Source of the DNA: a virus
Direction: 5' to 3' (one strand)
DNA: 10,151 bases
Virus genome (UHGV): UHGV-0767307
Under the pieces are notes generated by a model. That model worked only from the letters and a program-made list of their open reading frames with translations. It was not told the origin of the DNA and ran no database searches. Of the stretch, positions 1 to 10,151 are shown piece by piece (the first letter of the stretch is position 1; the number at the start of each line of letters is the position of its first letter). The position numbers were made by a program, and so were the translations under genes.

Positions 1-199
1 ACGAATACACCGGTAACGGCGTTACGACATCGTTTCCGTATACTTTTCGAATTTTGATGTTACACAAGCGAGAAAACTTGATAAAAAAGGCTGGAACAAA
101 AAGGGGCTGTATTCAATACAGACCCCTGGTGGAATACAAGAACTATCCATCGTTTCAGAATCAGGTCTCTACATCCTTATTCTGCGTTGCAAAGAGGCA

Positions 200-634
200 A
201 TGACTGAGGGAACGAGAGCATTCAGATTTCTTGAATGGGTTACAGGTGAGGTTCTTCCTCAGATCCGCCGCACCGGAAGTTACATTAAAAACTCGCTCCC
301 GCAGGAAGAACGCATAAAGATGGTTGCCGACCAGGTAGCCAACGCCACGGCGTCAGCAGTAATGCAGGCAATGAAGATAGAGAACAAAACCTACAGTGCC
401 CCGCTGAAGCCCGGCTACCGCAGCCTGATTCATTCGCCGTCTGGTGTTCTCGGCCTGACGGAGAACTCACTGCTGATGAATCTGCTGAACCAGTTACAGG
501 ACGACGGGCACGACGTATCGGGCGCGGCGGCGGAGCTGACCACCATGTTCTGCTACATCGTCGGTGTGAGTAAATGCCTGCGTGATATCCAGACTCACGC
601 GGAGTACATCAACGACAAAGCAGGATTCTTCTGA
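200..634 (+). CDS. Bro-N-like antirepressor-family protein, probably N-terminally truncated (144 aa from the only in-frame ATG)
   Basis: ORF 200..634. The translation across the start (..ELSIVSESGLYILILRCKEA-MTEGTRAFRFLEWVTGEVLPQIRRTGSY..) matches the conserved C-terminal end of Bro-N domains (ESGLY...A..F..WV..VLP.IR..G.Y pattern, recalled, not searched). The frame is open upstream only to a TAA at 14-16, and there is no ATG/GTG/TTG in frame between 17 and 199. A hairpin follows the stop. Confidence 0.55.
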   Translation: MTEGTRAFRFLEWVTGEVLPQIRRTGSYIKNSLPQEERIKMVADQVANATASAVMQAMKIENKTYSAPLKPGYRSLIHSPSGVLGLTENSLLMNLLNQLQDDGHDVSGAAAELTTMFCYIVGVSKCLRDIQTHAEYINDKAGFF

Positions 635-642
635 CGGGCGGC

Positions 643-668
643 GGCACAGGGATGTGCCTTTAAATAAT
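643..668 (+). terminator. Possible weak intrinsic terminator after the Bro-like ORF
   Basis: Stem GGCACA (643-648) / TGTGCC (653-658) with a GGGA loop, followed by the T/A-rich run TTTAAATAATT. Lies 9 nt after the stop at 632-634. The short stem and interrupted U-tract make it weak. Confidence 0.3.
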
Positions 669-678
669 TCTGTACAGA

Positions 679-707
679 TTGCAGACTGGGGGTGAATAGC
701 GTACTAT
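679..707 (+). promoter_or_regulatory. Candidate sigma70-type promoter for the 781..1413 gene
   Basis: TTGCAG (679-684), 17-bp spacer, TACTAT (702-707). Sits in the AT-rich intergenic region about 75 nt upstream of ATG 781. Found by eye only, so the false-positive risk is high. Confidence 0.25.
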
Positions 708-780
708 TACCTCAAGGGTAAGAAAGCATTTTTAATCTTCCCTTCAAAACGCGTCCTGTAGCCAAACATGGGAGGACGAA

Positions 781-1413
781 ATGAGAACAAATACAACAAG
801 AAAAGCGATGCCATACATTATCCCAGAAGCAGATTTCGATAGAAAACTGAACATGTCTGAGAAGAACACTAGTCACACCGAAAGCTACTTAGCGAAAGGT
901 GTGGTTGATTTCGTTCTTCCGGGATTCACAACACCTTATGGTTATCGCCTTGTAAAATCTTGTAATGGCGATCATTACAGAATGATTACTACCAGCGATA
1001 CTCCAGAAACGGTGTATGCGGTTAAGTTAATCTTTCGGGAAGATATCGTCGAAGCCAAAAGAACATGTACGCAGATCATGGTATGGCGTACGCCTAATGT
1101 TATTCATGACCGTGCTGTTCATGGTTTGCCTCAGATTTTTTTTCAGTTCTTCCTAGAGCAATATGCGATCGTTGTATCTGATGAGCAACAAACAATCGAT
1201 GGGAGAAGATTCTGGGAAAGAATGATTTCTTGGGCTATAAACACCCCAGGATATAATGTATACGTTTCAGATGGCTCTGAAGAAGATAGACCTCTTAGCT
1301 TCATGACATCATGGGATGATTTCTATAGCCAGTGGGCTGATTTCTGTTGGGGCAGTGATAAAGATGTGCATACCCACAGACTACTGGTTATAAGCAAAGA
1401 TAAACTGCATTAA
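781..1413 (+). CDS. Hypothetical protein, 210 aa, no signal peptide; moron-like cargo gene of unknown function
   Basis: ORF 781..1413 with a strong Shine-Dalgarno GGAGGA (771-776) 4 nt before the ATG. GC is about 38-40%, clearly below the flanking phage genes. A classic intrinsic terminator follows directly. I recognise no family; the sequence is acidic and aromatic-rich with a C-terminal ..HTHRLLVISKDKLH. Confidence 0.75.
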   Translation: MRTNTTRKAMPYIIPEADFDRKLNMSEKNTSHTESYLAKGVVDFVLPGFTTPYGYRLVKSCNGDHYRMITTSDTPETVYAVKLIFREDIVEAKRTCTQIMVWRTPNVIHDRAVHGLPQIFFQFFLEQYAIVVSDEQQTIDGRRFWERMISWAINTPGYNVYVSDGSEEDRPLSFMTSWDDFYSQWADFCWGSDKDVHTHRLLVISKDKLH

Positions 1414-1416
1414 TAG

Positions 1417-1439
1417 AAGCCCGCAGCGCGGGCTTTTTT
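1417..1439 (+). terminator. Rho-independent terminator of the 781..1413 gene
   Basis: Perfect 8-bp stem AAGCCCGC (1417-1424) / GCGGGCTT (1428-1435) with a 3-nt loop, running into a T6 tract (1434-1439). Begins 4 nt after the TAA stop. Confidence 0.7.
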
Positions 1440-1511
1440 GTGGACGAAACAAAAGTCAGTGCTACACTCATTGACGCCACATTGAGGTGGCTTATAGATG
1501 GAAATTTCACA

Positions 1512-1673
1512 ATGAAAAAAGCATTTGCTGCACTGTTCGTTTTGTTGTCTCTGGTAGCTTCAACTCAGGCCTTTGCCGGTCGTTGTCAGCACGACAGCGA
1601 TACCGCCGCTGACGGCTCCCGCTGCGGTGGGCGTTCTGCGGATTCCCGCCCGGGCGGCGGTGGCATTCGTTAA
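1512..1673 (+). CDS. Small secreted peptide precursor (53 aa: Sec-type signal peptide plus a 31-aa Gly/Arg/Asp-rich mature part with 2 Cys)
   Basis: ATG 1512 gives MKKAFAALFVLLSLVASTQAFA|GRCQHDSDTAADGSRCGGRSADSRPGGGGIR, with a textbook n-h-c signal peptide and an AFA cleavage motif. The ORF track starts at GTG 1440, which would put 24 residues in front of the signal peptide, so ATG 1512 is preferred. The 3' half is markedly GC-rich. A 5-codon upstream ORF at 1498-1515 (MEISQ) with SD GAGGTGG overlaps the ATG. The gene is short, so a chance ORF is not excluded. Confidence 0.5.
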   Translation: MKKAFAALFVLLSLVASTQAFAGRCQHDSDTAADGSRCGGRSADSRPGGGGIR

Positions 1674-1696
1674 AAACAAGGCCGCGAAAGCGGCCT
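1671..1696 (-). terminator. Intrinsic terminator for the minus-strand gene 1710..2159 (hairpin shared with the end of the + strand peptide gene)
   Basis: Stem GGCCGC (1680-1685) / GCGGCC (1690-1695) with a GAAA tetraloop. On the - strand transcript it is followed by UUGUUUUUA (complement of 1671-1679). Lies 14 nt downstream of the - strand stop at 1710-1712. There is no U-tract on the + strand side. Confidence 0.55.
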
Positions 1697-1709
1697 GTGA
1701 CATGTCACG

Positions 1710-2159
1710 CTACTTGCGAAATCTTTCTTTACCCTTCCAGCCAGTAGATGTTAGTTCAGGATGAATGGTTCCCAATATAAAGCCAACCATAGCGGAGCGA
1801 GGATCTTCTATTTTATCCGTTAATTCTTCGGCATAACTCACAGGCAACCAAGCAACAAGATCACCAATCCTCAGCTTTGGTCCTTTGCTGTAAGATGAAT
1901 CGGCAATAACAAAAAATCCACCATCAGCTGAGCACACCTTCAGCATTGCCCTTTGTCTTCCAGAATCTAGCAAAACTGGCTGTTCCCCACTTGGACCAGG
2001 TATGATGATGGCTGGCATTGGTTTATTGGCTGAAAGGCTTGTGTCAAGATACTTACACGCATACTCAAAAGCTGAAAAGTTATCCTTAAAGATAAGAGGT
2101 TGAATTTTATTGCTAACCTCCTTACCACCGATTAATCTGTTGATCATCTTCTTGAACAT
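1710..2159 (-). CDS. Hypothetical protein, 149 aa, cytoplasmic-looking, unknown function
   Basis: Minus-strand ORF with stop at 1710-1712. The track starts at GTG 2166-2168, but the in-frame ATG at 2157-2159 is preceded by AGGTGA with a 5-nt spacer, and the GGTGA is built from that GTG, so ATG 2159 is preferred. GC about 40%. Protein MFKKMINRLIGG...; no motif recognised. Confidence 0.6.
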   Translation of the reverse strand: MFKKMINRLIGGKEVSNKIQPLIFKDNFSAFEYACKYLDTSLSANKPMPAIIIPGPSGEQPVLLDSGRQRAMLKVCSADGGFFVIADSSYSKGPKLRIGDLVAWLPVSYAEELTDKIEDPRSAMVGFILGTIHPELTSTGWKGKERFRK

Positions 2160-2171
2160 AAAGGTCACCTA

Positions 2172-2612
2172 ATGATTAAGCCGATGCACGCTATTACAGC
2201 TACCGTTTTGTTTATCCTACCAATTTTTTTGTTTGCAAACGACATATGTTTTAAGAATTTAATAAATGAGGATATGTGTGCACATGCAAACAAAATTGCA
2301 TCAGAAGCAGGAAAGTCACTTCCCATAAAATTGAATGATAATATGTCTATTGTTTCAATAAATGCAATACTAAACAAACTTTTAGTTGTAGCGCATCTTA
2401 ATTACAACAACAGCTATTTATCAAAAGTTTATAACGGTGATGTAACCTTAGAAAATAAATTAAAGAGTGTAATGCGAAATTATTCAAAATCGAGCATTTG
2501 CTCCAACAGGCAAATGAAAGCATTTATTCACCTTGGCGGAGAGATTGAATATAGGTATGTATTTAGTGATGGCAATATATTTGATACATACGCCATCACT
2601 AATTGTGAATAG
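2172..2612 (+). CDS. Secreted or membrane-anchored protein, 146 aa, AT-rich moron gene of unknown function
   Basis: ORF 2172..2612 at roughly 30-32% GC. A 146-codon open frame is very unlikely by chance at that composition (rough estimate P about 1e-5). The N-terminus MIKPMHAITATVLFILPIFLFA is a signal peptide or signal anchor. The protein is Asn/Lys/Ile-rich with 4 Cys. Its TAG stop (2610-2612) abuts the stop of the convergent 2613.. gene. Confidence 0.7.
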   Translation: MIKPMHAITATVLFILPIFLFANDICFKNLINEDMCAHANKIASEAGKSLPIKLNDNMSIVSINAILNKLLVVAHLNYNNSYLSKVYNGDVTLENKLKSVMRNYSKSSICSNRQMKAFIHLGGEIEYRYVFSDGNIFDTYAITNCE

Positions 2613-5324
2613 CTATTTCATCTGCTCTTCAACTTTATTTAGTAACGGTGATATCGCCCACAGGTTCTGAAAAGGTAGCATTTTACGGACCGCGTGGGTT
2701 TGCTGGCTGTCAAATTCTCCGTTAAGTACACCATTCGCAACCGTCGCGGCATCACCGCCAAGATCAAAGGTAGGACCAAGTAAAGCACCAATAGCATTAC
2801 GACTCTGAAACCTTGATACCGGAGGCGCACCAAACATCGCGCCAAGACCAAACCTACCGCCGCTTATGTTCTCAACGGTATTCAGCGGCTCAGAGAGCCA
2901 GCCAAGCATTCCGCCCCGGTCGATCCCCTCTTTCACAAGGTTATTCCAGCTGTAGTCGATATCGCGACCGCTTAACTTCTGTTTCATCATATAGACCATT
3001 GAGCCAAGCGCAATCGTGCCAAGCGCACCAAGATAGAATGCAGCATCGCCCTGCTGGATACCAGATACTAGCACCCTGTTATGCTGTGCGAAGATAAACG
3101 TTTTGAACTGCGTGATCATCTTCCAGCCTTCTTTACTAAAAAACAGCGGTGTATCACCTACGCCAGGCGTTACAATCACTGAGTCTACATCTTTCAGCAC
3201 TGCAGACTGGAAAATCTCTCTAGCGAAACGGTCATCCCACAGATGACTATGCCCGGTTAACAGCCCGTCCATATCCTCTCCGTGCTCCCCGAATTGCTCC
3301 CCGATTCGGCGCAGAACATCTTCATTGATGCCGACCTGTGCCATCTTCCGCATTTCACTTTTGGAGAGCGTGCCACCAGCAGAAACTTGGCGAGCCGCGT
3401 CAAGTATCCTCGACTGCACTATCATCCCGGACCATGATTTAAGTGCGCTGTTCCACTGATTCATCAGCGTCCAGTTACCGAATTTCTGCGTCATCCAGTT
3501 CAGACCTCGCTCAGCGGCGCTTCTCCGGCTATAGGGGTCAGTAAGATCCGCTATAGCCTTTGTACGCGTAGACAGGACATAATCAAGCCCAACGGCCATT
3601 TCTCGCAAATCCCTGGTTGCAATTTTCACTGAGTCCATATTTTTAAGCATGCTTACCATTGGTCCGAGAGATTTTCTCAGGCCATGCTGCATCATCGGTC
3701 GCATCAGATCAGTTGCAGCGGAGACAGTCATTCCACCAAGCAAACGGAGGAAGTTAATATTCCTAGCAACTCGCCCGGCACGAACAAAGAAACTGCGTGG
3801 ATCTTGAGGTGCACCGTAAGTACCAAGCAGTCGATCACGCATAGCCGTAATATCCCTAATATCAGCCTCCCGTTGCTTCTCAAGAACTGCACGTCGTTTA
3901 GGTGTTTTAGCCTCTTTTATTAGCCGGGTATATTCCTCACTAACCTGACGGATTTGCTCCCCCATATCTTTACGGCCAAACTGCGCAGTCAGCTCAATTT
4001 CTGGTGCCACCTGCCGGAGATAACTTTCCATGATGTAGTTAACATCTGATTCAAGAAAATCTTCTATACGCTCATCAGGAATAAGCAGCGTTCTGCTTTT
4101 AGTGAAACCAGCCCGACCAACGAGTCTCTCTGGGATAATATCGGCTGGTACAAGCCCGGAAGGTGCGCCTATTATTTTATTCACGATCTCGTCAGCAGCG
4201 TCCTCTGCTTCCTCTCGGGATAGAGGCTCCATCTGCTTCAGTGCTCGTTCGCGGCTTGCATTCAGCCTTGTGGTTGAATTTGCCCGTTTTTGCAGTCGGC
4301 GAAGCTCAGAACGATATTTCCGTGGATTATCCAGCAACTCCATATGGCGCTGATAGACAGGAAGCTCACTCTTTGCCTGCGCTATATCATCAAGGCGTGT
4401 TTTAAGGTCAGAGCTTTCTTTCATCATTCTTGCCTGAAGTTTTTCTGATGAAGTCTCGGCCAACTCTTTTTCTATTCTTGTAAGACGCGCCTGTGTGTCA
4501 GTCTCCTGAGATATAAGCTTATTTCGTTTATCCAGTTCTTCCATGAGTAGAATTTTTTTACCAGACCATTTCTCCGCTTCAGCGATTTCACTAGCGAGAG
4601 CATCAGCGCGCGGTGCCGATTCCTCTGCAGTTTTTAGCAATGAATTTATCCTTTCAATTCGCTGACCTGCTTTGTCAGCACCTTTGGCACTAATCCCTTG
4701 TATCCAGTTGGCAATTCGCCCTCTGAATTCAGTGCGGTCGGAAAGTATCTTATCGAACTTATAAATGCGGGGAAGATAACTTTTCGCCGTCACGACATCG
4801 ATATCCTCAGGAAGGATCCCCAGTTCCTGCATACGGGCTTTTGTGGTCTCGAAAATGGGGCGGATTCTGGCGGCTGCTTGTGAAACCTCAGGAATATCAC
4901 TCTGATCACCACGGCGCATAGCCATGCCAACAGCTTCATTGAAATCAATAAAGTTCATCCTCTTCACGCCGCGGGCGCTAACAGATTTGCTGTACTGCTG
5001 GTAAGCATCACGAGTGGCTTCCATCTGCTTATAAAGCATGGCGTCGTATTGCTTAATCTTAGTCTCGACTGCCGTAAACGTAGCCAACCCCTCATCATTT
5101 TTGGCGAAGAAATAGTTATTTTCGGCAAGCTGCTGGTTAATCTGACGGGAGACAAGAGATGGTGATTGAGCCAAGCGGCCAGCAGGAGTGACACTCAACG
5201 TTTTGTTAGCAAGTCCAAGTCCAGCGAGCTGTTCCTGATCGAGTGTGGTATTGAAAACCTGAGCTGCACCAATGCTTTGAGGAGAATCCATACCTCGCAA
5301 ATGATTACCTACTGAGTTAACCAC
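2613..5324 (-). CDS. C-terminal portion (903-codon ORF) of a large internal-virion / ejection-like protein gene split by a tandem duplication
   Basis: The open frame 2613..5324 begins at GTG 5322-5324 (first ATG at 5289-5291), neither with a convincing Shine-Dalgarno. Its first 188 residues are identical to the last residues of ORF 5392..6657 because of the 655-bp repeat. Removing one copy joins the two ORFs in frame. It contains a long charged coiled-coil-like region (..ELDKRNKLISQETDTQARLTRIEKELAETSSEKLQARMMKESSDLKTRLDD..) and a Gly-rich C-terminal end. Confidence 0.7.
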   Translation of the reverse strand: MVNSVGNHLRGMDSPQSIGAAQVFNTTLDQEQLAGLGLANKTLSVTPAGRLAQSPSLVSRQINQQLAENNYFFAKNDEGLATFTAVETKIKQYDAMLYKQMEATRDAYQQYSKSVSARGVKRMNFIDFNEAVGMAMRRGDQSDIPEVSQAAARIRPIFETTKARMQELGILPEDIDVVTAKSYLPRIYKFDKILSDRTEFRGRIANWIQGISAKGADKAGQRIERINSLLKTAEESAPRADALASEIAEAEKWSGKKILLMEELDKRNKLISQETDTQARLTRIEKELAETSSEKLQARMMKESSDLKTRLDDIAQAKSELPVYQRHMELLDNPRKYRSELRRLQKRANSTTRLNASRERALKQMEPLSREEAEDAADEIVNKIIGAPSGLVPADIIPERLVGRAGFTKSRTLLIPDERIEDFLESDVNYIMESYLRQVAPEIELTAQFGRKDMGEQIRQVSEEYTRLIKEAKTPKRRAVLEKQREADIRDITAMRDRLLGTYGAPQDPRSFFVRAGRVARNINFLRLLGGMTVSAATDLMRPMMQHGLRKSLGPMVSMLKNMDSVKIATRDLREMAVGLDYVLSTRTKAIADLTDPYSRRSAAERGLNWMTQKFGNWTLMNQWNSALKSWSGMIVQSRILDAARQVSAGGTLSKSEMRKMAQVGINEDVLRRIGEQFGEHGEDMDGLLTGHSHLWDDRFAREIFQSAVLKDVDSVIVTPGVGDTPLFFSKEGWKMITQFKTFIFAQHNRVLVSGIQQGDAAFYLGALGTIALGSMVYMMKQKLSGRDIDYSWNNLVKEGIDRGGMLGWLSEPLNTVENISGGRFGLGAMFGAPPVSRFQSRNAIGALLGPTFDLGGDAATVANGVLNGEFDSQQTHAVRKMLPFQNLWAISPLLNKVEEQMK

Positions 5325-5411
5325 TGCCTCGCGCGCGCTAGGTCCAGCAAGTAGCTGTGCACCAGCACCAAGGATCCCACCAACGAGAGCATCAACAACA
5401 ACGTTCGATAC
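4757..5411. repeat. Tandem direct repeat, copy A (655 bp)
   Basis: Identical to 5412-6066 wherever I compared the two copies in 60-nt blocks across the whole unit. Flanking bases differ (4756 A vs 5411 C; 5412 A vs 6067 G), so the boundaries are exact and the copies sit head-to-tail with no spacer. Confidence 0.9.
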
Positions 5412-6657
5412 ACTTATAAATGCGGGGAAGATAACTTTTCGCCGTCACGACATCGATATCCTCAGGAAGGATCCCCAGTTCCTGCATACGGGCTTTTGTG
5501 GTCTCGAAAATGGGGCGGATTCTGGCGGCTGCTTGTGAAACCTCAGGAATATCACTCTGATCACCACGGCGCATAGCCATGCCAACAGCTTCATTGAAAT
5601 CAATAAAGTTCATCCTCTTCACGCCGCGGGCGCTAACAGATTTGCTGTACTGCTGGTAAGCATCACGAGTGGCTTCCATCTGCTTATAAAGCATGGCGTC
5701 GTATTGCTTAATCTTAGTCTCGACTGCCGTAAACGTAGCCAACCCCTCATCATTTTTGGCGAAGAAATAGTTATTTTCGGCAAGCTGCTGGTTAATCTGA
5801 CGGGAGACAAGAGATGGTGATTGAGCCAAGCGGCCAGCAGGAGTGACACTCAACGTTTTGTTAGCAAGTCCAAGTCCAGCGAGCTGTTCCTGATCGAGTG
5901 TGGTATTGAAAACCTGAGCTGCACCAATGCTTTGAGGAGAATCCATACCTCGCAAATGATTACCTACTGAGTTAACCACTGCCTCGCGCGCGCTAGGTCC
6001 AGCAAGTAGCTGTGCACCAGCACCAAGGATCCCACCAACGAGAGCATCAACAACAACGTTCGATACGCTCTCCATCGGTGAGCGAGCTTCCTGAGTGGCC
6101 TGTAATGCGGCTTCTGATACTCCCCCACCAGCAGCATTCGCCAGGGCAAAACGCCCTGCCGTCTCAGCAATACTTCCTCCACGCGCTACCGCCCCTACAG
6201 GGATAAACATTGCAGCCACATTAACCGGGTCTATCATTCCCATTGCTAAGCTTGAAATAGTACCAGCACCACCCATTTCAGATAGATATTCTCTATCTGT
6301 TCTTTGCTTATCGATTCGATGTTTAATTGCCATTGTTTCTTCATGCGAACCGGAGTTGATAAACGAATCTGCAAAATCTTCATAGCCTTTAATATCTGCT
6401 GCATCGTTATCAAATGGGTTATATCCTTCAACCCTGTCAAACTGACTGAAAGGAGCACTGGCAATAAAGCTACCCAGCGTGTTATCTATACGAAATGCTG
6501 CTTGTCTAGACCTTTGAACGCGTTGATCACTGGTAAATGGGTTCACAGCAGAAAGCAAAGAAGGTGTTTCCATATAGAAATTACTGTCATCAGGTGCTGC
6601 TATTTGCTGAATATCCTCGCCAAGCAACTCTTTAGGATCCTGTTCATATATCGGCAT
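5392..6657 (-). CDS. N-terminal portion (421-codon ORF) of the same large virion protein gene, ending prematurely just after the duplication junction
   Basis: ATG at 6655-6657 overlaps the TAA of the upstream 915-aa gene (TAATG). The frame runs through copy B, crosses the junction at 5411/5412 out of frame and stops after 6 aberrant codons (..YLPRIYK-CIERCC*). It contains Gly/Ala-rich hydrophobic segments (..GGAGTISSLAMGMIDPVNVAAMFIPVGAVARGG.., ..LVGGILGAGAQLLAG..), consistent with a membrane-interacting ejection protein. Confidence 0.7.
   Translation of the reverse strand: MPIYEQDPKELLGEDIQQIAAPDDSNFYMETPSLLSAVNPFTSDQRVQRSRQAAFRIDNTLGSFIASAPFSQFDRVEGYNPFDNDAADIKGYEDFADSFINSGSHEETMAIKHRIDKQRTDREYLSEMGGAGTISSLAMGMIDPVNVAAMFIPVGAVARGGSIAETAGRFALANAAGGGVSEAALQATQEARSPMESVSNVVVDALVGGILGAGAQLLAGPSAREAVVNSVGNHLRGMDSPQSIGAAQVFNTTLDQEQLAGLGLANKTLSVTPAGRLAQSPSLVSRQINQQLAENNYFFAKNDEGLATFTAVETKIKQYDAMLYKQMEATRDAYQQYSKSVSARGVKRMNFIDFNEAVGMAMRRGDQSDIPEVSQAAARIRPIFETTKARMQELGILPEDIDVVTAKSYLPRIYKCIERCC
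5412..6066. repeat. Tandem direct repeat, copy B (655 bp)
   Basis: Second copy of the 655-bp unit. 655 = 3x218+1, so reading through both copies shifts the frame by +1. The track ORFs 4964..5194 and 5619..5849 are identical 76-aa by-products of the repeat. Confidence 0.9.
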
Positions 6658-9404
6658 TATTTGCCCCCTGCGTATATATTGCTCGGAAGGTAATTGGCTG
6701 AACCATAACCGAATGGTTTGGTCAGATCTGGAGGAGTATATCCATCTTTATTGCTGAACTGCGGCAGCGGATTGCCTTCTCTCCGCACTCTAGCCTCATC
6801 AACACGTTGTTGCTGGAACTGAATGGTTTGCCTGTACATTGGAGATGTCAGCTGATCCGGCTTGAAACGAACAGGGAGACCATTTTCTCCAATATAATTT
6901 CTCGGTTCTATCGCTCCGTTTGCGTCAGGCTGTAAAACCATAACAGCATAACTCCTATCCCTTGCCGTAAGGCCATCAGAAACAAGTATTAAGTCCGTAT
7001 CACTGCGAGGACCGCCAAAGGATTTTGATTTAAGCTCGCGTTTTTCCTGCTCCCACTGCCCCTGTATCCAGTTACCAGCACCATTATTTACTCCGTACAA
7101 TGCCTCAGGTGCATACTTCATAACCTCTGCTTTGCCATTAACCGTAGAAACTCCCCAGGTGGTTCTGATCATGGCATTGGTCATTTTCTCAGCCTGTTCT
7201 GCATCGCCACCTGTCTGTACAAAGTTAGCATCGTAAATTGTCTGGTAATCTCGCTGATAGGCCGCATTTGATTTTCCTGGATCGGTAATATCCGGAGACC
7301 ACGAACCAAAGGAAGTCAGACTGCTGGCGTTATTTTGTGCAGCAGTTGCCCTCGCCGCGACATATTTTTTGTCTCGCATGGCAGTGGAAAGCATCTGTTT
7401 CATTCGGTCATCCTGTTGGAACACCTGGCTGTAAGCCATATCAACAGCCTTATCCTCCGGCACGCCAGCGCGGGAATAATCGTAAACCTTGCCGTAAAAT
7501 GCCATCGTACTTTTATCAAGTGTTGCCGCTGCCGCCGGATTATTATCGAATAACTGACCGTAGAATTTTGCCATCGGGACAACCAGCGCAGGATCTCTTG
7601 ATGTTGCTCCACTGTTAAGCATTGTTTTAACCTGAGTTGGTATCATGCCGCTTTTAGTTGTGACGGTGACCAGTGTATTGATGCTCTGCGGATCAGATAT
7701 GGAAAACGAAGGCGCGATATCCTGCGCGAAATAACGGTCTACCGCTGCCTGATTGTTTTTGTCGTTCGGGTCCAGCGGGAAGTTATTTTGCATTGAAGAC
7801 ACGAACCTGTTTCTTCCCTGCTGAATCTCCCACTCCCTATCCATCTCTTTAAATTTGGCCTGCATTTTCTCCCAGCGTTGCTGGTTAGCTGCAAATCCAG
7901 GAGCGTTTGGATCCTGTGGACGTAAACGTTCAAGAATGTCTTGTCGTCCTTCTGGAGTGAGGTCTTTAGCGGCACCAATGACACCTCCATATTGTATCTG
8001 CGCCTGCATATCCTTCCACTTCATAGCGCCAATGCGCGGACCATTGGCCCGGATAAAATCGTCCTCAGAAGGTAACTTCTCAGGTTTCAATCCTTCATCA
8101 AGGGCTGAATATGCATCTTTAACTACGGTGCTAAGCTGGTCCGCATACTGCTGGCGGTACTGATTTCTCAGCTCATTAGCCTGCCTCAATGCCTGTATTT
8201 GCATTTGAGGGCTCATAGCATCAAATGCCGCATTGCCCGTATAACGCTTAGGTGAATCAAGGTTAGTTAGACCAAGGGCTGCCGAGATACCAGTTTCAAG
8301 CTGTTCGGTGCTATAAGGCATACTGCCATTTTCGTGTTTAATAATCCCAGCACATAAAGCAGCTAGTGTCTTTGGGTTAGAGATATCAAGCTGATCATTC
8401 TCCCCAACACCAAGCTCACCACACAATGCCCTAATATAAGCATCAGTATTATTACCATCACTAGCCGGAGCATAGCGATTAACAATCTCGCTAACGGTGT
8501 CATAGCCTTGACGCTGGTAAGACAACATATTTTTACCCAACGCGCGGATTCCATGCTCAGGGGTAGCAAACGTTGCAAAACGTCCATCGCTACCGATCTG
8601 ACCTTCCCACGGGTTAGATTTGCTCGCTTCAATATTACCAGGGTTATTATTACGTAAACCACGAGCATCCAATGAATTACCATGTGATATTGCACGACTC
8701 ACACCATCAAGATCCCCTGGCTCTCCATTAACCTGAAGAAACTCGTTGTATTTTTGAGCGATATTTCCTATCCATGCTTGCTGCCCCATTTGTTCCTTGA
8801 GCTGAGTTTTCTGCTGAACACGCCACTCATCAGGAAGCCCATGCGCATCAGCGTATTGATCAATAGATTCAAATCGCTGCTTGGCTAAATCGACAAATGC
8901 TTGGTTATCGCTATATAGCCCCGCAGACTGAGTGACAGCCAATGCATTTCCTGACAAATACGTTTGATCTTGGAATTGCTGAAACTGCCCAACTTCATAT
9001 CGACGTGCCTGATTGTAATAAGACTGCATAGACTGCTGGAGTTGAAAGGATAATTTATTCCTTTCCTCACTTTCAGGAATTGAGCCTAATAATGCCTGAG
9101 CCCTTTCCTGCATATTTTTCATAACAGCGTCACTCTGACCAAGAGCGTTTTTACCCTGTTTAGAAATCAGCCCACTTTCAGGGTTGTTAATCTGGTCATC
9201 TGCAAATTGGTTAAATTGCAGTAACGCCTCCTGGGCCATAGCAACATTCGCTTTCTGCCTGGCTTCACCATATGCCACCGCATACTGATCTGCGACATTC
9301 GCCAGCACCTGACCTGCTTGAGGAACATCGAAGATCTGAAAACCACCGGTTTGCACACCACGACTTTGCACCTGGCGTCCGGATGTAGTAGGAACAACAG
9401 GCAT
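6657..9404 (-). CDS. Large virion protein, 915 aa (internal-virion / ejection-protein-like), with a central conserved-looking RNNNPGNI...W.G module
   Basis: Uninterrupted 2748-nt ORF. The ATG at 9402-9404 overlaps the TGA of the 191-aa gene (TGATG) and is preceded by a perfect AGGAGG (complement of 9410-9415). The stop overlaps the next ATG. The protein is Gln-rich with no recognisable enzymatic motif except the ..GLRNNNPGNIEASKSNPWEGQ..FATF..PEHGIRAL.. segment. The functional call is inferred from size and order. Confidence 0.85.
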   Translation of the reverse strand: MPVVPTTSGRQVQSRGVQTGGFQIFDVPQAGQVLANVADQYAVAYGEARQKANVAMAQEALLQFNQFADDQINNPESGLISKQGKNALGQSDAVMKNMQERAQALLGSIPESEERNKLSFQLQQSMQSYYNQARRYEVGQFQQFQDQTYLSGNALAVTQSAGLYSDNQAFVDLAKQRFESIDQYADAHGLPDEWRVQQKTQLKEQMGQQAWIGNIAQKYNEFLQVNGEPGDLDGVSRAISHGNSLDARGLRNNNPGNIEASKSNPWEGQIGSDGRFATFATPEHGIRALGKNMLSYQRQGYDTVSEIVNRYAPASDGNNTDAYIRALCGELGVGENDQLDISNPKTLAALCAGIIKHENGSMPYSTEQLETGISAALGLTNLDSPKRYTGNAAFDAMSPQMQIQALRQANELRNQYRQQYADQLSTVVKDAYSALDEGLKPEKLPSEDDFIRANGPRIGAMKWKDMQAQIQYGGVIGAAKDLTPEGRQDILERLRPQDPNAPGFAANQQRWEKMQAKFKEMDREWEIQQGRNRFVSSMQNNFPLDPNDKNNQAAVDRYFAQDIAPSFSISDPQSINTLVTVTTKSGMIPTQVKTMLNSGATSRDPALVVPMAKFYGQLFDNNPAAAATLDKSTMAFYGKVYDYSRAGVPEDKAVDMAYSQVFQQDDRMKQMLSTAMRDKKYVAARATAAQNNASSLTSFGSWSPDITDPGKSNAAYQRDYQTIYDANFVQTGGDAEQAEKMTNAMIRTTWGVSTVNGKAEVMKYAPEALYGVNNGAGNWIQGQWEQEKRELKSKSFGGPRSDTDLILVSDGLTARDRSYAVMVLQPDANGAIEPRNYIGENGLPVRFKPDQLTSPMYRQTIQFQQQRVDEARVRREGNPLPQFSNKDGYTPPDLTKPFGYGSANYLPSNIYAGGK

Positions 9405-9979
9405 CAGTAACCTCCTATTTTGAATCGGGAGTCAGAATTCATAAAACCTGAGTTAGATAACATTGGCGTCCCACCACTAGATGTACTTCCTTTAGAGAAC
9501 GGACTCCACGTCCCACCAAACATCTGGTACGCACCGTATGCCTTCAGAGGCGCAGTGAGCAATGTTGTTGCTGCTCCCACATTCCCCTGTTTACGGGCTG
9601 AACTGGCTTCTGCTTTATAGTTGGCAGCCTGAACCTGATAACCGTAAGCCTCGCGTTGCGCGTTATTCACCGTCGTCAGCGAATCAAGAGCGCCAAACTG
9701 GGCAGTGTCGCCAAATATATCCAGCGCGTTACCTGTAGATAAATCAGCGCCGGTAGCCCCCATTGTCGCTGCCTGTGTACCAAGCCGCTGTCGGGTCTCT
9801 CTGCGTCGTTGCTCAGCTTCAGCGTTACCTCTGTTTATTGCATCATTTGCCTGAGCTGTGGCTATATCTGCGTTCGCTTCTGCAACCTTCGAGGCATACT
9901 TTCCCTGTTGGTACTGGGTGTATGCCTGAATGCCACTCATGGCGAGCATTGCGCCACCAGCAATAACCGGATCGCACAT
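9404..9979 (-). CDS. Small virion-associated protein, 191 aa, with N-terminal hydrophobic segment and Ala/Gln-rich helical region
   Basis: ORF with ATG at 9977-9979 preceded by GGAGAG (5-6 nt spacer). N-terminus MCDPVIAGGAMLAMSGIQAY is hydrophobic, followed by an Ala/Gln/Asn-rich stretch and a Gly/Ser-rich C-terminus. Coupled to both neighbours by 1-nt stop/start overlaps. In position and size it is analogous to the small internal virion protein that precedes the two large ones in T7-like podoviruses (inference). Confidence 0.8.
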   Translation of the reverse strand: MCDPVIAGGAMLAMSGIQAYTQYQQGKYASKVAEANADIATAQANDAINRGNAEAEQRRRETRQRLGTQAATMGATGADLSTGNALDIFGDTAQFGALDSLTTVNNAQREAYGYQVQAANYKAEASSARKQGNVGAATTLLTAPLKAYGAYQMFGGTWSPFSKGSTSSGGTPMLSNSGFMNSDSRFKIGGY

Positions 9980-10151
9980 TATTTTCTCTCCATGTGAAAT
10001 CTGTGGAAATTAAGACCAAGAGCACCATAAGGCGCGGCTTCTTCAAGCCTGAATCCAAGCCAGTGCAGCCATGCTTTGGCAACATGGTTTCGCTCGTCGA
10101 CGTAGTTTTCCAGGCGCGGATAAACTGCCAGCATCTGCTGCAATACAGGGC
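9979..10151 (-). CDS. 3' end of an upstream minus-strand gene (last 56 codons; start lies beyond the window); C-terminus has a GNAT-like N..A.......GF motif
   Basis: Frame open from the window edge to TAA (complement of 9979-9981), which overlaps the ATG of the 191-aa gene (TAATG). My manual translation is ..PVLQQMLAVYPRLENYVDERNHVAKAWLHWLGFRLEEAAPYGALGLNFHRFHMERK*. The track misses it because it is under 60 aa from the first Met. The alternative frame (track ORF 9843..10085) is Cys/Trp-rich and overlaps the 191-aa gene, so this frame is preferred. Confidence 0.5.
   Translation of the reverse strand, partial: PVLQQMLAVYPRLENYVDERNHVAKAWLHWLGFRLEEAAPYGALGLNFHRFHMERK

Follow-up and report, generated by a model that had tools for sequence, protein, structure and literature searches.

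Among the systems described to date, those closest to the locus presented here are the phage morons and accessory-gene hotspots, such as lambda bor/lom, P22 sieA and the P2/P4 loci. These are present or absent among near-identical phages, deviate in base composition, are flanked by transcription signals and hold many alternative cargos at one site. In P22 the superinfection exclusion gene sieA is located between the homologues of genes 16 and 9 (bioRxiv 10.1101/2023.08.15.553423). The subject of this analysis is a gene encoding a protein of 210 amino acids (aa) in the viral genome UHGV-0767307; the whole stretch of 10,151 nt is called the window, and all positions refer to it unless another contig is named. 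The gene resembles the known morons and hotspots in each of these respects, and like sieA it lies between the tailspike and the ejection or internal-virion genes. It differs from known morons in that neither the promoter-like site nor the terminator is its own; both are built into the site (the socket) that it occupies. The locus also differs from known hotspots, since no cargo here matches a catalogued defence system and expression in the lysogen is predicted.

From the comparison of related genomes, the gene is very probably a phage moron carried as a single-gene cargo in a conserved socket. The best overall explanation, to which we assign a probability of about 0.4, is that this swappable cargo encodes a transferase with a GNAT fold that aids the carrier cell. 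The phage backbone would provide the socket, including a weak sigma-70-like promoter to the left of the cargo and a strong intrinsic terminator to its right, and the exchangeable part (∼722–1416) would bring its own leader, a strong ribosome-binding site and the open reading frame (ORF). Exchange between near-identical backbones would occur via homologous recombination in the arms. The product would be a soluble cytoplasmic enzyme that acylates or aminoacylates a target in the cytoplasm, and the carrier cell would benefit, most plausibly through interference with superinfecting phages. A hairpin in the leader, over the Shine–Dalgarno (SD) sequence, may damp translation. The architecture (a moron in a variable slot) and the fold superfamily are already known, while the family has no characterised member and no Pfam entry. 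At present this amounts to an ordinary moron whose function is not assigned, together with a useful structural lead.

The socket and its exchangeable cargo

Positions 600–1500 were compared by megablast with 5,426 complete genomes of Escherichia coli. The flanks of the socket are found in 475 of these (∼9%), but the whole segment in only 93. The left arm is 92–98% identical in TL-2011b, phiv142-3 and E. coli prophages with other cargo, and the right arm is likewise conserved (Table 1). Alignments and blastn place sharp junctions at 719–721 on the left (676 in EC.W1-9) and at 1417/1418 on the right. At the same junctions other phages carry a YafO-family toxin preceded by a small ORF, a DUF4760 protein, a membrane protein of the DUF2335 type together with an ORF of 108 aa, or pairs of small ORFs. 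Among 60 evenly spaced records the gene studied here occurs 12 times, YafO 14 times, the small-ORF pairs 9 times, DUF2335 8 times and DUF4760 6 times. The backbones closest to the window (99.8% identical over 45–10151) hold YafO or other cargo, so the exchange is recent. The existence of sister phage genomes that lack the gene (TL-2011b, phiv142-3 and EC.W1-9) implies that it is dispensable to the phage.

The cargo also stands apart in composition, with a G + C content of 41.0% (722–1416) compared with 49.4% (635–721) and 54.9% (1417–1709) on the two sides. The low-GC setting that had been noted in an earlier reading of the sequence alone (the sequence-only reading) is thus real, and the sharp fall is exactly within the cargo. 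That reading had proposed a phage moron. The proposal is borne out by this deviant composition, by the presence of the gene in 93 of the 475 genomes with the socket, by the unrelated genes that replace it in near-identical backbones and by its solitary occurrence at moron positions of unrelated phages (see below).

The gene had also been taken for a self-contained promoter–gene–terminator cassette, and this does not hold. From the positions of the junctions, both the promoter-like site (with ∼8 nt past its predicted start) and the terminator are constant backbone DNA, where they flank unrelated cargo in related phages. DNA homology to the copies in other phage types extends only over 744–1413 (an Enterobacter lambdoid phage and phage LLS) or 765–1446 (Klebsiella), so the gene travels without a promoter. 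The terminator, at the left edge of the right arm, is common to phages with other cargo. Its hairpin has a ΔG of −15.3 kcal/mol (z = −3.1) and one of 200 shuffled sequences folds as well; the T6 tract follows and overlaps the stem. It was not listed by a consensus scan. Described previously as a textbook terminator with an 8-bp GC stem, it is indeed a strong hairpin with T6, but the stem comprises six G–C pairs extended by A–U pairs. The terminator loop (1425–1427) is AGC in the window and TL-2011b, and the reverse complement GCT in phiv142-3 and EC.W1-9, with an identical stem. The hairpin has apparently been flipped between phages, which hints at a role in cargo-swapping recombination.

The flanks of the cargo contain no direct or inverted repeats of ≥14 nt and no attC-like sites. 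Exchange of the cargo most likely occurs by homologous recombination in the arms. In some relatives (TL-2011b and the IMG/VR contigs L102, L104, L105 and L111) a second copy of the Ant anti-repressor gene is present in inverted orientation immediately behind the 53-aa gene that follows the cargo. This copy is ≤613 nt in length and 97.6% identical to window positions 46–657. The slot is thus bracketed in those relatives by long inverted repeats, through which it might be inverted. No long inverted Ant repeat of this kind is present in the window.

By its sequence, the phage that carries the socket is a Uetakevirus-like (epsilon15/phiV10/TL-2011b type) temperate podovirus, present as a prophage in E. 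coli. The minus-strand genes between 2613 and 9979 encode T7 gp14/gp15/gp16-like internal virion proteins (a T7_gp14 match in Pfam and internal-virion matches in PHROG), and the DNA of the window shares 99–99.8% identity with Uetakevirus records and with prophages of numerous E. coli chromosomes. In E. coli strain AR_0086 a related prophage adjoins yfgI, which is consistent with the 3′ end of guaA reported as the Uetakevirus integration site (PMC9782041). Upstream of the socket, the ORF at 200–634 is the C-terminal part of a Bro-N/Ant anti-repressor, as found by PHROG search, with its stop codon at 632–634. The interval from the tailspike to the internal virion proteins carries Ant and, in TL-2011b, also Arc; judged by analogy of position, it corresponds to the stretch between gene 16 and gene 9 of P22 in which sieA lies.

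The protein family, its predicted fold and its distribution

The protein had been described as unrecognised. Its whole length is nevertheless matched by PHROG 1349 (E = 3e-113), and its predicted fold resembles that of GNATs. PHROG 1349 is itself without functional annotation and thus gives no clue to mechanism. The family has weak links to phrog_3307 and phrog_7522, and its distant and fused members also match PHROG 1349. There are 63 close homologues of ∼210 aa across Enterobacterales, with 37–100% identity, and an exhaustive profile search returns 918 clusters at 50% identity; given these relatives of conserved length, the ORF is a real gene. Both the ORF and its strong GGAGGA ribosome-binding site are present just as the sequence-only reading had them, and GGAGG is kept 4–7 nt upstream of the start codon in most homologues. 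The 210-aa protein has no match in Pfam, NCBIfam, PADLOC-DB 2.0 (none at E ≤ 1) or a sequence search of the PDB, and the cluster names of 10 distant members are all ‘hypothetical’ or ‘phage protein’. Assignment of a function to this family, which lacks a Pfam entry, would annotate many hundreds of clusters.

The protein has no hydrophobic or transmembrane segment (maximum KD19 1.05), and an isoelectric point of 6.0. Its 25 N-terminal residues, seen as rich in Thr, Asn and Arg, had been judged compatible with, though not evidence for, a secreted effector. The idea of an effector is not supported. The Thr/Asn/Arg-rich part comprises only residues 2–8 and is not conserved; many homologues lack residues 1–9 and start at the invariant Met10, and the N-terminus is predicted to be disordered. 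Rare fusions are found within the family (P0153, encoded at 1519–2262 of contig L005, and P0135, P0139 and P0143). In P0153 the N-terminal toxin-binding zinc domain of MqsA (E = 3e-20) takes the place of the first ∼24 residues, and a second family-like gene (phrog_7522/3307) lies four genes downstream in L005. The other fusions have an N-terminal phrog_15103/weak SAD_SRA domain, an unassigned N-terminal extension of 300 aa or a C-terminal DUF5397.

Structure prediction, which had been suggested as a check on the protein, gives a GNAT-like α/β fold. The AlphaFold2 (AF2) model has a predicted local distance difference test score (pLDDT) of 78.6 when built from 35 sequences, rising to 88.4 with a predicted template modelling score of 0.81 from 79 sequences, and the order of secondary structure is the same in both. 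The structure comparisons used the first model (pLDDT 78.6). Foldseek against the PDB returns mostly GNAT acetyltransferases, with a best E of 5e-3. The matches include aminoglycoside, streptothricin-type, bialaphos and polyamine acetyltransferases, with TacT, AtaT and KacT matched weakly. A viral structure library gives uncharacterised phage proteins of ∼190 aa (E = 6e-9), and also NAT_SF proteins. On the basis of the model, the protein probably has a divergent GNAT-like (acyl-CoA N-acyltransferase-like) fold. About half of it superposes on GNAT cores, with ∼100 residues outside the superposed core. In comparison with the GNAT superfamily, two helices (107–128) are located here between the strands at 95–103 and 130–132.

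A constellation of polar residues (N29, Y79, Q98, R103, D134, Q137, T138 and D164) is kept in 55–76 of 79 diverse members of the family. N29 is conserved in 76 of these, Y79 in 75, D134 in 71, Q137 in 62 and T138 in 63, together with G141 in 64 and W145 in 77. From its conservation, the constellation looks like a catalytic or substrate-binding site.

The close homologues are always solitary, and are found at five unrelated phage positions, on plasmids and at orphan chromosomal sites. In a Serratia siphovirus prophage the copy lies beside an Arc/anti-repressor module, while in the P1-like phage-plasmids of Citrobacter it is located between baseplate genes and a sit-like transglycosylase, on the strand opposite to the late genes. 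In Enterobacter lambdoid prophages and the isolated coliphage LLS it lies between the lysis cassette and the terminase or the genome end, and Klebsiella has a copy in a Uetakevirus-like prophage. The copy in LLS (which infects K-12) is 84% identical and is the last gene of the genome; it offers a tractable experimental system. The family occurs in 50 viral contigs of IMG/VR and in 48 plasmid records (Aeromonas, Shewanella, Pantoea and others), the latter with no conserved neighbour. Paralogy of the plasmid neighbour genes was examined and rejected. In Xenorhabdus bovienii an orphan chromosomal copy is found between ppc and metF. In 69 species-representative genomes, the genes found most often directly beside the family member encode nitroreductase (15), an MmyB-type regulator (8–10) and ThiD, PagP, Hda and PTS-IIB (6 each), and purC is also among the commonest housekeeping neighbours.

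Proposed function and its alternatives

The intact orphan copies on chromosomes and plasmids argue for a benefit on the side of the host. Phage exclusion would be the most plausible form of this, because the slot matches the position of sieA, and because the gene alternates in the slot with a toxin–antitoxin pair and small membrane proteins. Judged from the model, the protein may be an active acyltransferase, with the odds somewhat against it. An anti-phage or host-protective role is conceivable, though on balance we consider it unlikely. A number of observations concerning the expression, sequence and distribution of the gene weigh against an enzyme of GNAT fold serving the carrier cell; they are given here together with the alternatives on which they bear.

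At the level of expression, the sigma-70 promoter TTGCAG-17-TACTAT is present as the sequence-only reading described it, but it is weak. It agrees with the consensus at 7 of 12 positions, and a consensus scan did not call it. On a position-weighted score that uses assumed base frequencies, it comes out on top among the sites of the intergenic region (146 nt) and in 18th place among the ∼60,700 sites of the window. Its score is equalled in 11% of shuffled intergenic regions, so that taken alone it is not above chance. The hairpin that follows ant (643–658) is not significant (ΔG = −10.1, z = −0.8), and transcription could consequently read through it. The gene would then not be an autonomous transcription unit, but would be read from the Ant fragment or the rearranged 5′ end of the tailspike gene, with the ‘promoter’ as a chance match; a mobile unit without a promoter is in keeping with this. 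On the other side, the 87-nt spacer with the promoter candidate is kept ahead of every type of cargo, with conservation reaching about +8 relative to the predicted start. The Serratia copy has an upstream promoter candidate with 9/12 positions and its own terminator. Several Xenorhabdus leaders contain TGTATAAT-type extended −10 boxes, and those of Proteus and Providencia contain TATAAT or TATACT, indicating that in those lineages, unlike the E. coli cargo, the gene probably has its own promoter. Dependence on read-through is unlikely, while retaining some weight.

In the chromosomal orphan copies (L014 and L047–L059) the −10 boxes directly precede the anti-SD box described below, at a distance of 35–45 nt from the ATG. 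The leader of the Serratia copy (L006, 5881–6000) is ∼90 nt in length, and a terminator-like hairpin (5939–5961) with a weak U tract lies between its promoter candidate and its SD hairpin. The Yersinia, Photorhabdus and Mixta copies are likewise preceded by a comparable GC hairpin that leads into a T-rich stretch. The Serratia-type hairpin could be an attenuator, or merely the terminator of an upstream gene. Published RNA-seq of a lysogen was dropped as a source of transcripts, since it concerns a different phage, Kapi1.

The candidate hairpin that would occlude the SD sequence (Table 1) is present in both the minimum free energy and the centroid fold of the leader, and a homologous anti-SD box travels with the gene in other genera. 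In 22 distinct leaders the helix is 70% paired, and four of the pairs vary on both sides (e.g. C–G/U–A and G–C/C–G). Its covariation score is 0.161, compared with 0.111 in shuffles (3/500) and ≤0.108 in slid controls, and no covariation was found for an alternative register of the helix. The pairing probability of the SD sequence does not exceed that of 68 control genes with a strong SD (median 0.66 versus 0.60, p = 0.13), so it is the modest covariation alone that speaks for the hairpin, and the case for it is suggestive only. Translation of Mu mom is gated by a hairpin at its ribosome-binding site that is opened by Com, and the leader hairpin is reminiscent of this. No ORF for a com-like partner was found upstream of the gene in the window.

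At the level of sequence, no link was found between the protein and the GNAT families in Pfam, NCBIfam or the PDB. With the 79 diverse relatives Pfam gives no family-domain match, detecting only the extra fused domains, and a profile search of the PDB found nothing. Searches of the literature for the PHROG 1349 family (by accession, PHROG id, GNAT with defence, DUF4760 and Phi05 phage names) returned none. In canonical GNAT motif A the β4–α3 pyrophosphate-binding loop has the sequence Q/R-x-x-G-x-G/A. The corresponding segment of the protein (133–145) is S-D-x-x-Q-T-x-x-G-x-R-F-W, in which both the register and the last position are off canonical. With the non-canonical loop Q-T-x-x-G-x-R, the use of acetyl-CoA should not be taken as given.

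The degenerate motif A, and the superposition of only about half of the protein on GNAT cores, would suit a non-catalytic GNAT-like binder of a ligand or protein, acting as a pseudo-enzyme, sponge or regulator. A model for this is the GNAT-like domain of Mycobacterium tuberculosis ICL2, which senses acetyl-CoA. Set against it is the resemblance of the strongly conserved polar constellation to a catalytic or substrate site, and we regard such a binder as improbable. An N-acyltransferase acting on a small molecule (an antibiotic, toxin or metabolite), with a phage-independent benefit to the carrier, could be read from the structural matches to the drug and polyamine acetyltransferases, from the wide retention of the gene in chromosomes and plasmids away from phage genes and from its being solitary with no partner. 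The Pfam, NCBIfam and PDB searches reveal no sequence similarity to any resistance family, however, the CoA motif is non-canonical, and the close homologues are linked most strongly to prophage immunity and moron positions. We regard this alternative, too, as improbable.

Phage proteins with a GNAT fold include AcrVA5, which acetylates Cas12a, and phiKMV Rac, which is associated with cleavage of the α subunit of RNA polymerase. The characterised examples found in the literature are of the counter-defence or takeover kind (PMC13219725, PMC7261163, PMC7552054). Mu Mom is a divergent GNAT-fold phage enzyme that modifies DNA adenine using Gly-tRNA rather than CoA, and thus a precedent for phage GNATs with non-CoA donors and nucleic-acid targets (PMC13219725). 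The protein studied here is like Mom in being of divergent GNAT fold, and in being a single-gene phage accessory function at the genome periphery. Homology to Mom was rejected, with an hhalign probability of 0.2%; Mom matches phrog_1384 only, in contrast to PHROG 1349 here.

An enzyme of this kind would act in counter-defence or host takeover during infection or induction, modifying a host immune component, DNA or RNA polymerase. In addition to the precedents of Mom, Rac and AcrVA5, this would accommodate the distant members of the family found on phage or viral contigs of large size (140–235 kb), Agrobacterium phage Atu_ph07 and Burkholderia phage BCSR5 (227 kb) among them. Tandem paralogues are encoded by two phage-like metagenomic contigs that are independent of each other (L017, 851–2148 and L018, 4186–5480), where a protein of 221 aa is followed 15 nt later by one of 205 aa (hhalign E = 6e-46). 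Both the large-contig relatives and the tandem paralogues can be explained by a role during infection or in anti-defence no less well than by a benefit to the carrier. The fusion of one member to the MqsA toxin-binding N-domain and of another to a weak SRA-like domain, the co-orientation of the lambdoid-phage copies with the late genes and the occurrence of the family on plasmids may be added. Many intact orphan copies lie between housekeeping genes with no phage near, however, and a function useful only to an infecting phage is hard to reconcile with these. In addition, in its Uetakevirus-like and P1-like settings the gene is read in the direction opposite to that of the structural genes, and there is no homology to Mom. 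On this evidence a counter-defence or takeover enzyme is unlikely.

Neither the protein nor the alternative cargos of the socket have a match in PADLOC, so that the socket as a defence hotspot is an analogy and not a finding. With at least five unrelated cargos, none of them in current defence catalogues, the socket is nevertheless a compact and well-delimited place for finding genes of phage–host conflict.

A GNAT-type toxin of a toxin–antitoxin pair, or a secreted type III effector, is very improbable. The type II toxins TacT, AtaT and KacT are alike in fold and are among the weak structural matches, the slot of sister phages can hold a YafO-type pair instead, and the N-terminus of the protein is polar and disordered. 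The gene differs from these toxins in that no small antitoxin gene adjoins it in any of the >100 contexts examined, and the existence of solitary chromosomal copies argues against constitutive toxicity. For an effector, residues 1–9 are unconserved and often absent, and no secretion-related neighbour was noted for the copies on Aeromonas, Shewanella and other plasmids and on phage or viral contigs.

A joint reading, which at present seems unlikely, would take PHROG 1349 and its ∼900 relatives (at 50% identity) as single-gene conflict enzymes. They would be divergent GNAT-fold transferases acting on nucleic acid or aminoacyl-tRNA, like Mom and TacT, and not by acetylation of proteins from acetyl-CoA. 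They would exclude phages or counter host defence, and would have spread among prophage sockets, plasmids and chromosomal islets as cargo gated by the anti-SD hairpin. If this were true, the Uetakevirus socket would be an uncatalogued hotspot, and DUF4760, the DUF2335 pair and the small ORFs would also be new immunity genes.

Neighbouring features of the window

The features of the socket and of the region to its right are itemized in Table 1. No Rfam family was found in the whole window, with only sub-threshold noise in 600–1750.

Table 1. Coordinates of the socket, its cargo and the adjacent features in the window
Feature	Position	Strand	Description
Conserved left arm of socket	600–721	.	Ant/Bro 3′ end, weak hairpin 643–658, promoter-like site
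Sigma-70-like promoter candidate TTGCAG-17-TACTAT	679–707	+	TACTAT at 702–707; backbone DNA, not cargo
Swapped cargo segment	722–1416	+	Leader, ribosome-binding site, ORF; bounds from blastn and alignments
Candidate SD-occluding hairpin	752–778	+	Anti-SD CGUCCU (752–757) pairs with AGGACG (773–778)
SD sequence GGAGGA	771–776	+	4 nt before ATG
Coding sequence	781–1413	+	210 aa, ATG start; predicted cytoplasmic protein, PHROG 1349 family, GNAT-like predicted fold
Intrinsic terminator	1415–1439	+	Stem 1415–1424/1428–1437, 10 bp (6 G–C pairs plus A–U pairs), loop AGC, T6 at 1434–1439
Conserved right arm of socket	1417–1713	.	98–99% identical in loci with other cargo
53-aa gene with signal peptide	1512–1673	+	Constant part of right arm; phrog_14503/phrog_3117 matches
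Terminator-like hairpin	1679–1696	−	Listed for this strand
Minus-strand ORF	1710–2168	−	152 aa, phrog_9944, 41.8% G + C
Low-GC stretch	2172–2612		31.5% G + C; holds a plus-strand ORF of 146 aa, phrog_8772
Promoter-like sites in the low-GC stretch	2575–2548 (10/12) and 2424–2395	−	

To the right of the socket a second low-GC accessory block (1679–2612) varies among relatives, and homology to the AR_0086 prophage stops at 1713. The block has no Pfam or PADLOC match.

At the other end of the window, positions 1–55 are 100% identical to codons ∼10–28 of the tailspike gene of related phages, in the orientation opposite to normal. This piece abuts the interior of the Ant gene with an overlap of 10 nt (46–55). 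The Ant frame has no start codon before 200, and the ‘Bro-like gene’ (46–634) of the sequence-only reading is thus a 5′-truncated remnant. The junction between tailspike and Ant is absent from every complete E. coli genome and IMG/VR contig examined, and points to a defective prophage, formed by inversion or deletion, or else to a chimeric assembly.

The 53-aa gene follows the socket whatever its cargo. Its product has a cleavable-looking signal peptide (MKKAFAALFVLLSLVASTQAFA, with GRCQHD... after the cleavage point) and a tail rich in Gly, Arg and Asp, and the annotation of phrog_14503 is ‘membrane associated protein, moron’. In some IMG/VR relatives (L106, L109 and L117) the gene is deleted, with the loss of the segment corresponding to window positions 1443–1634.

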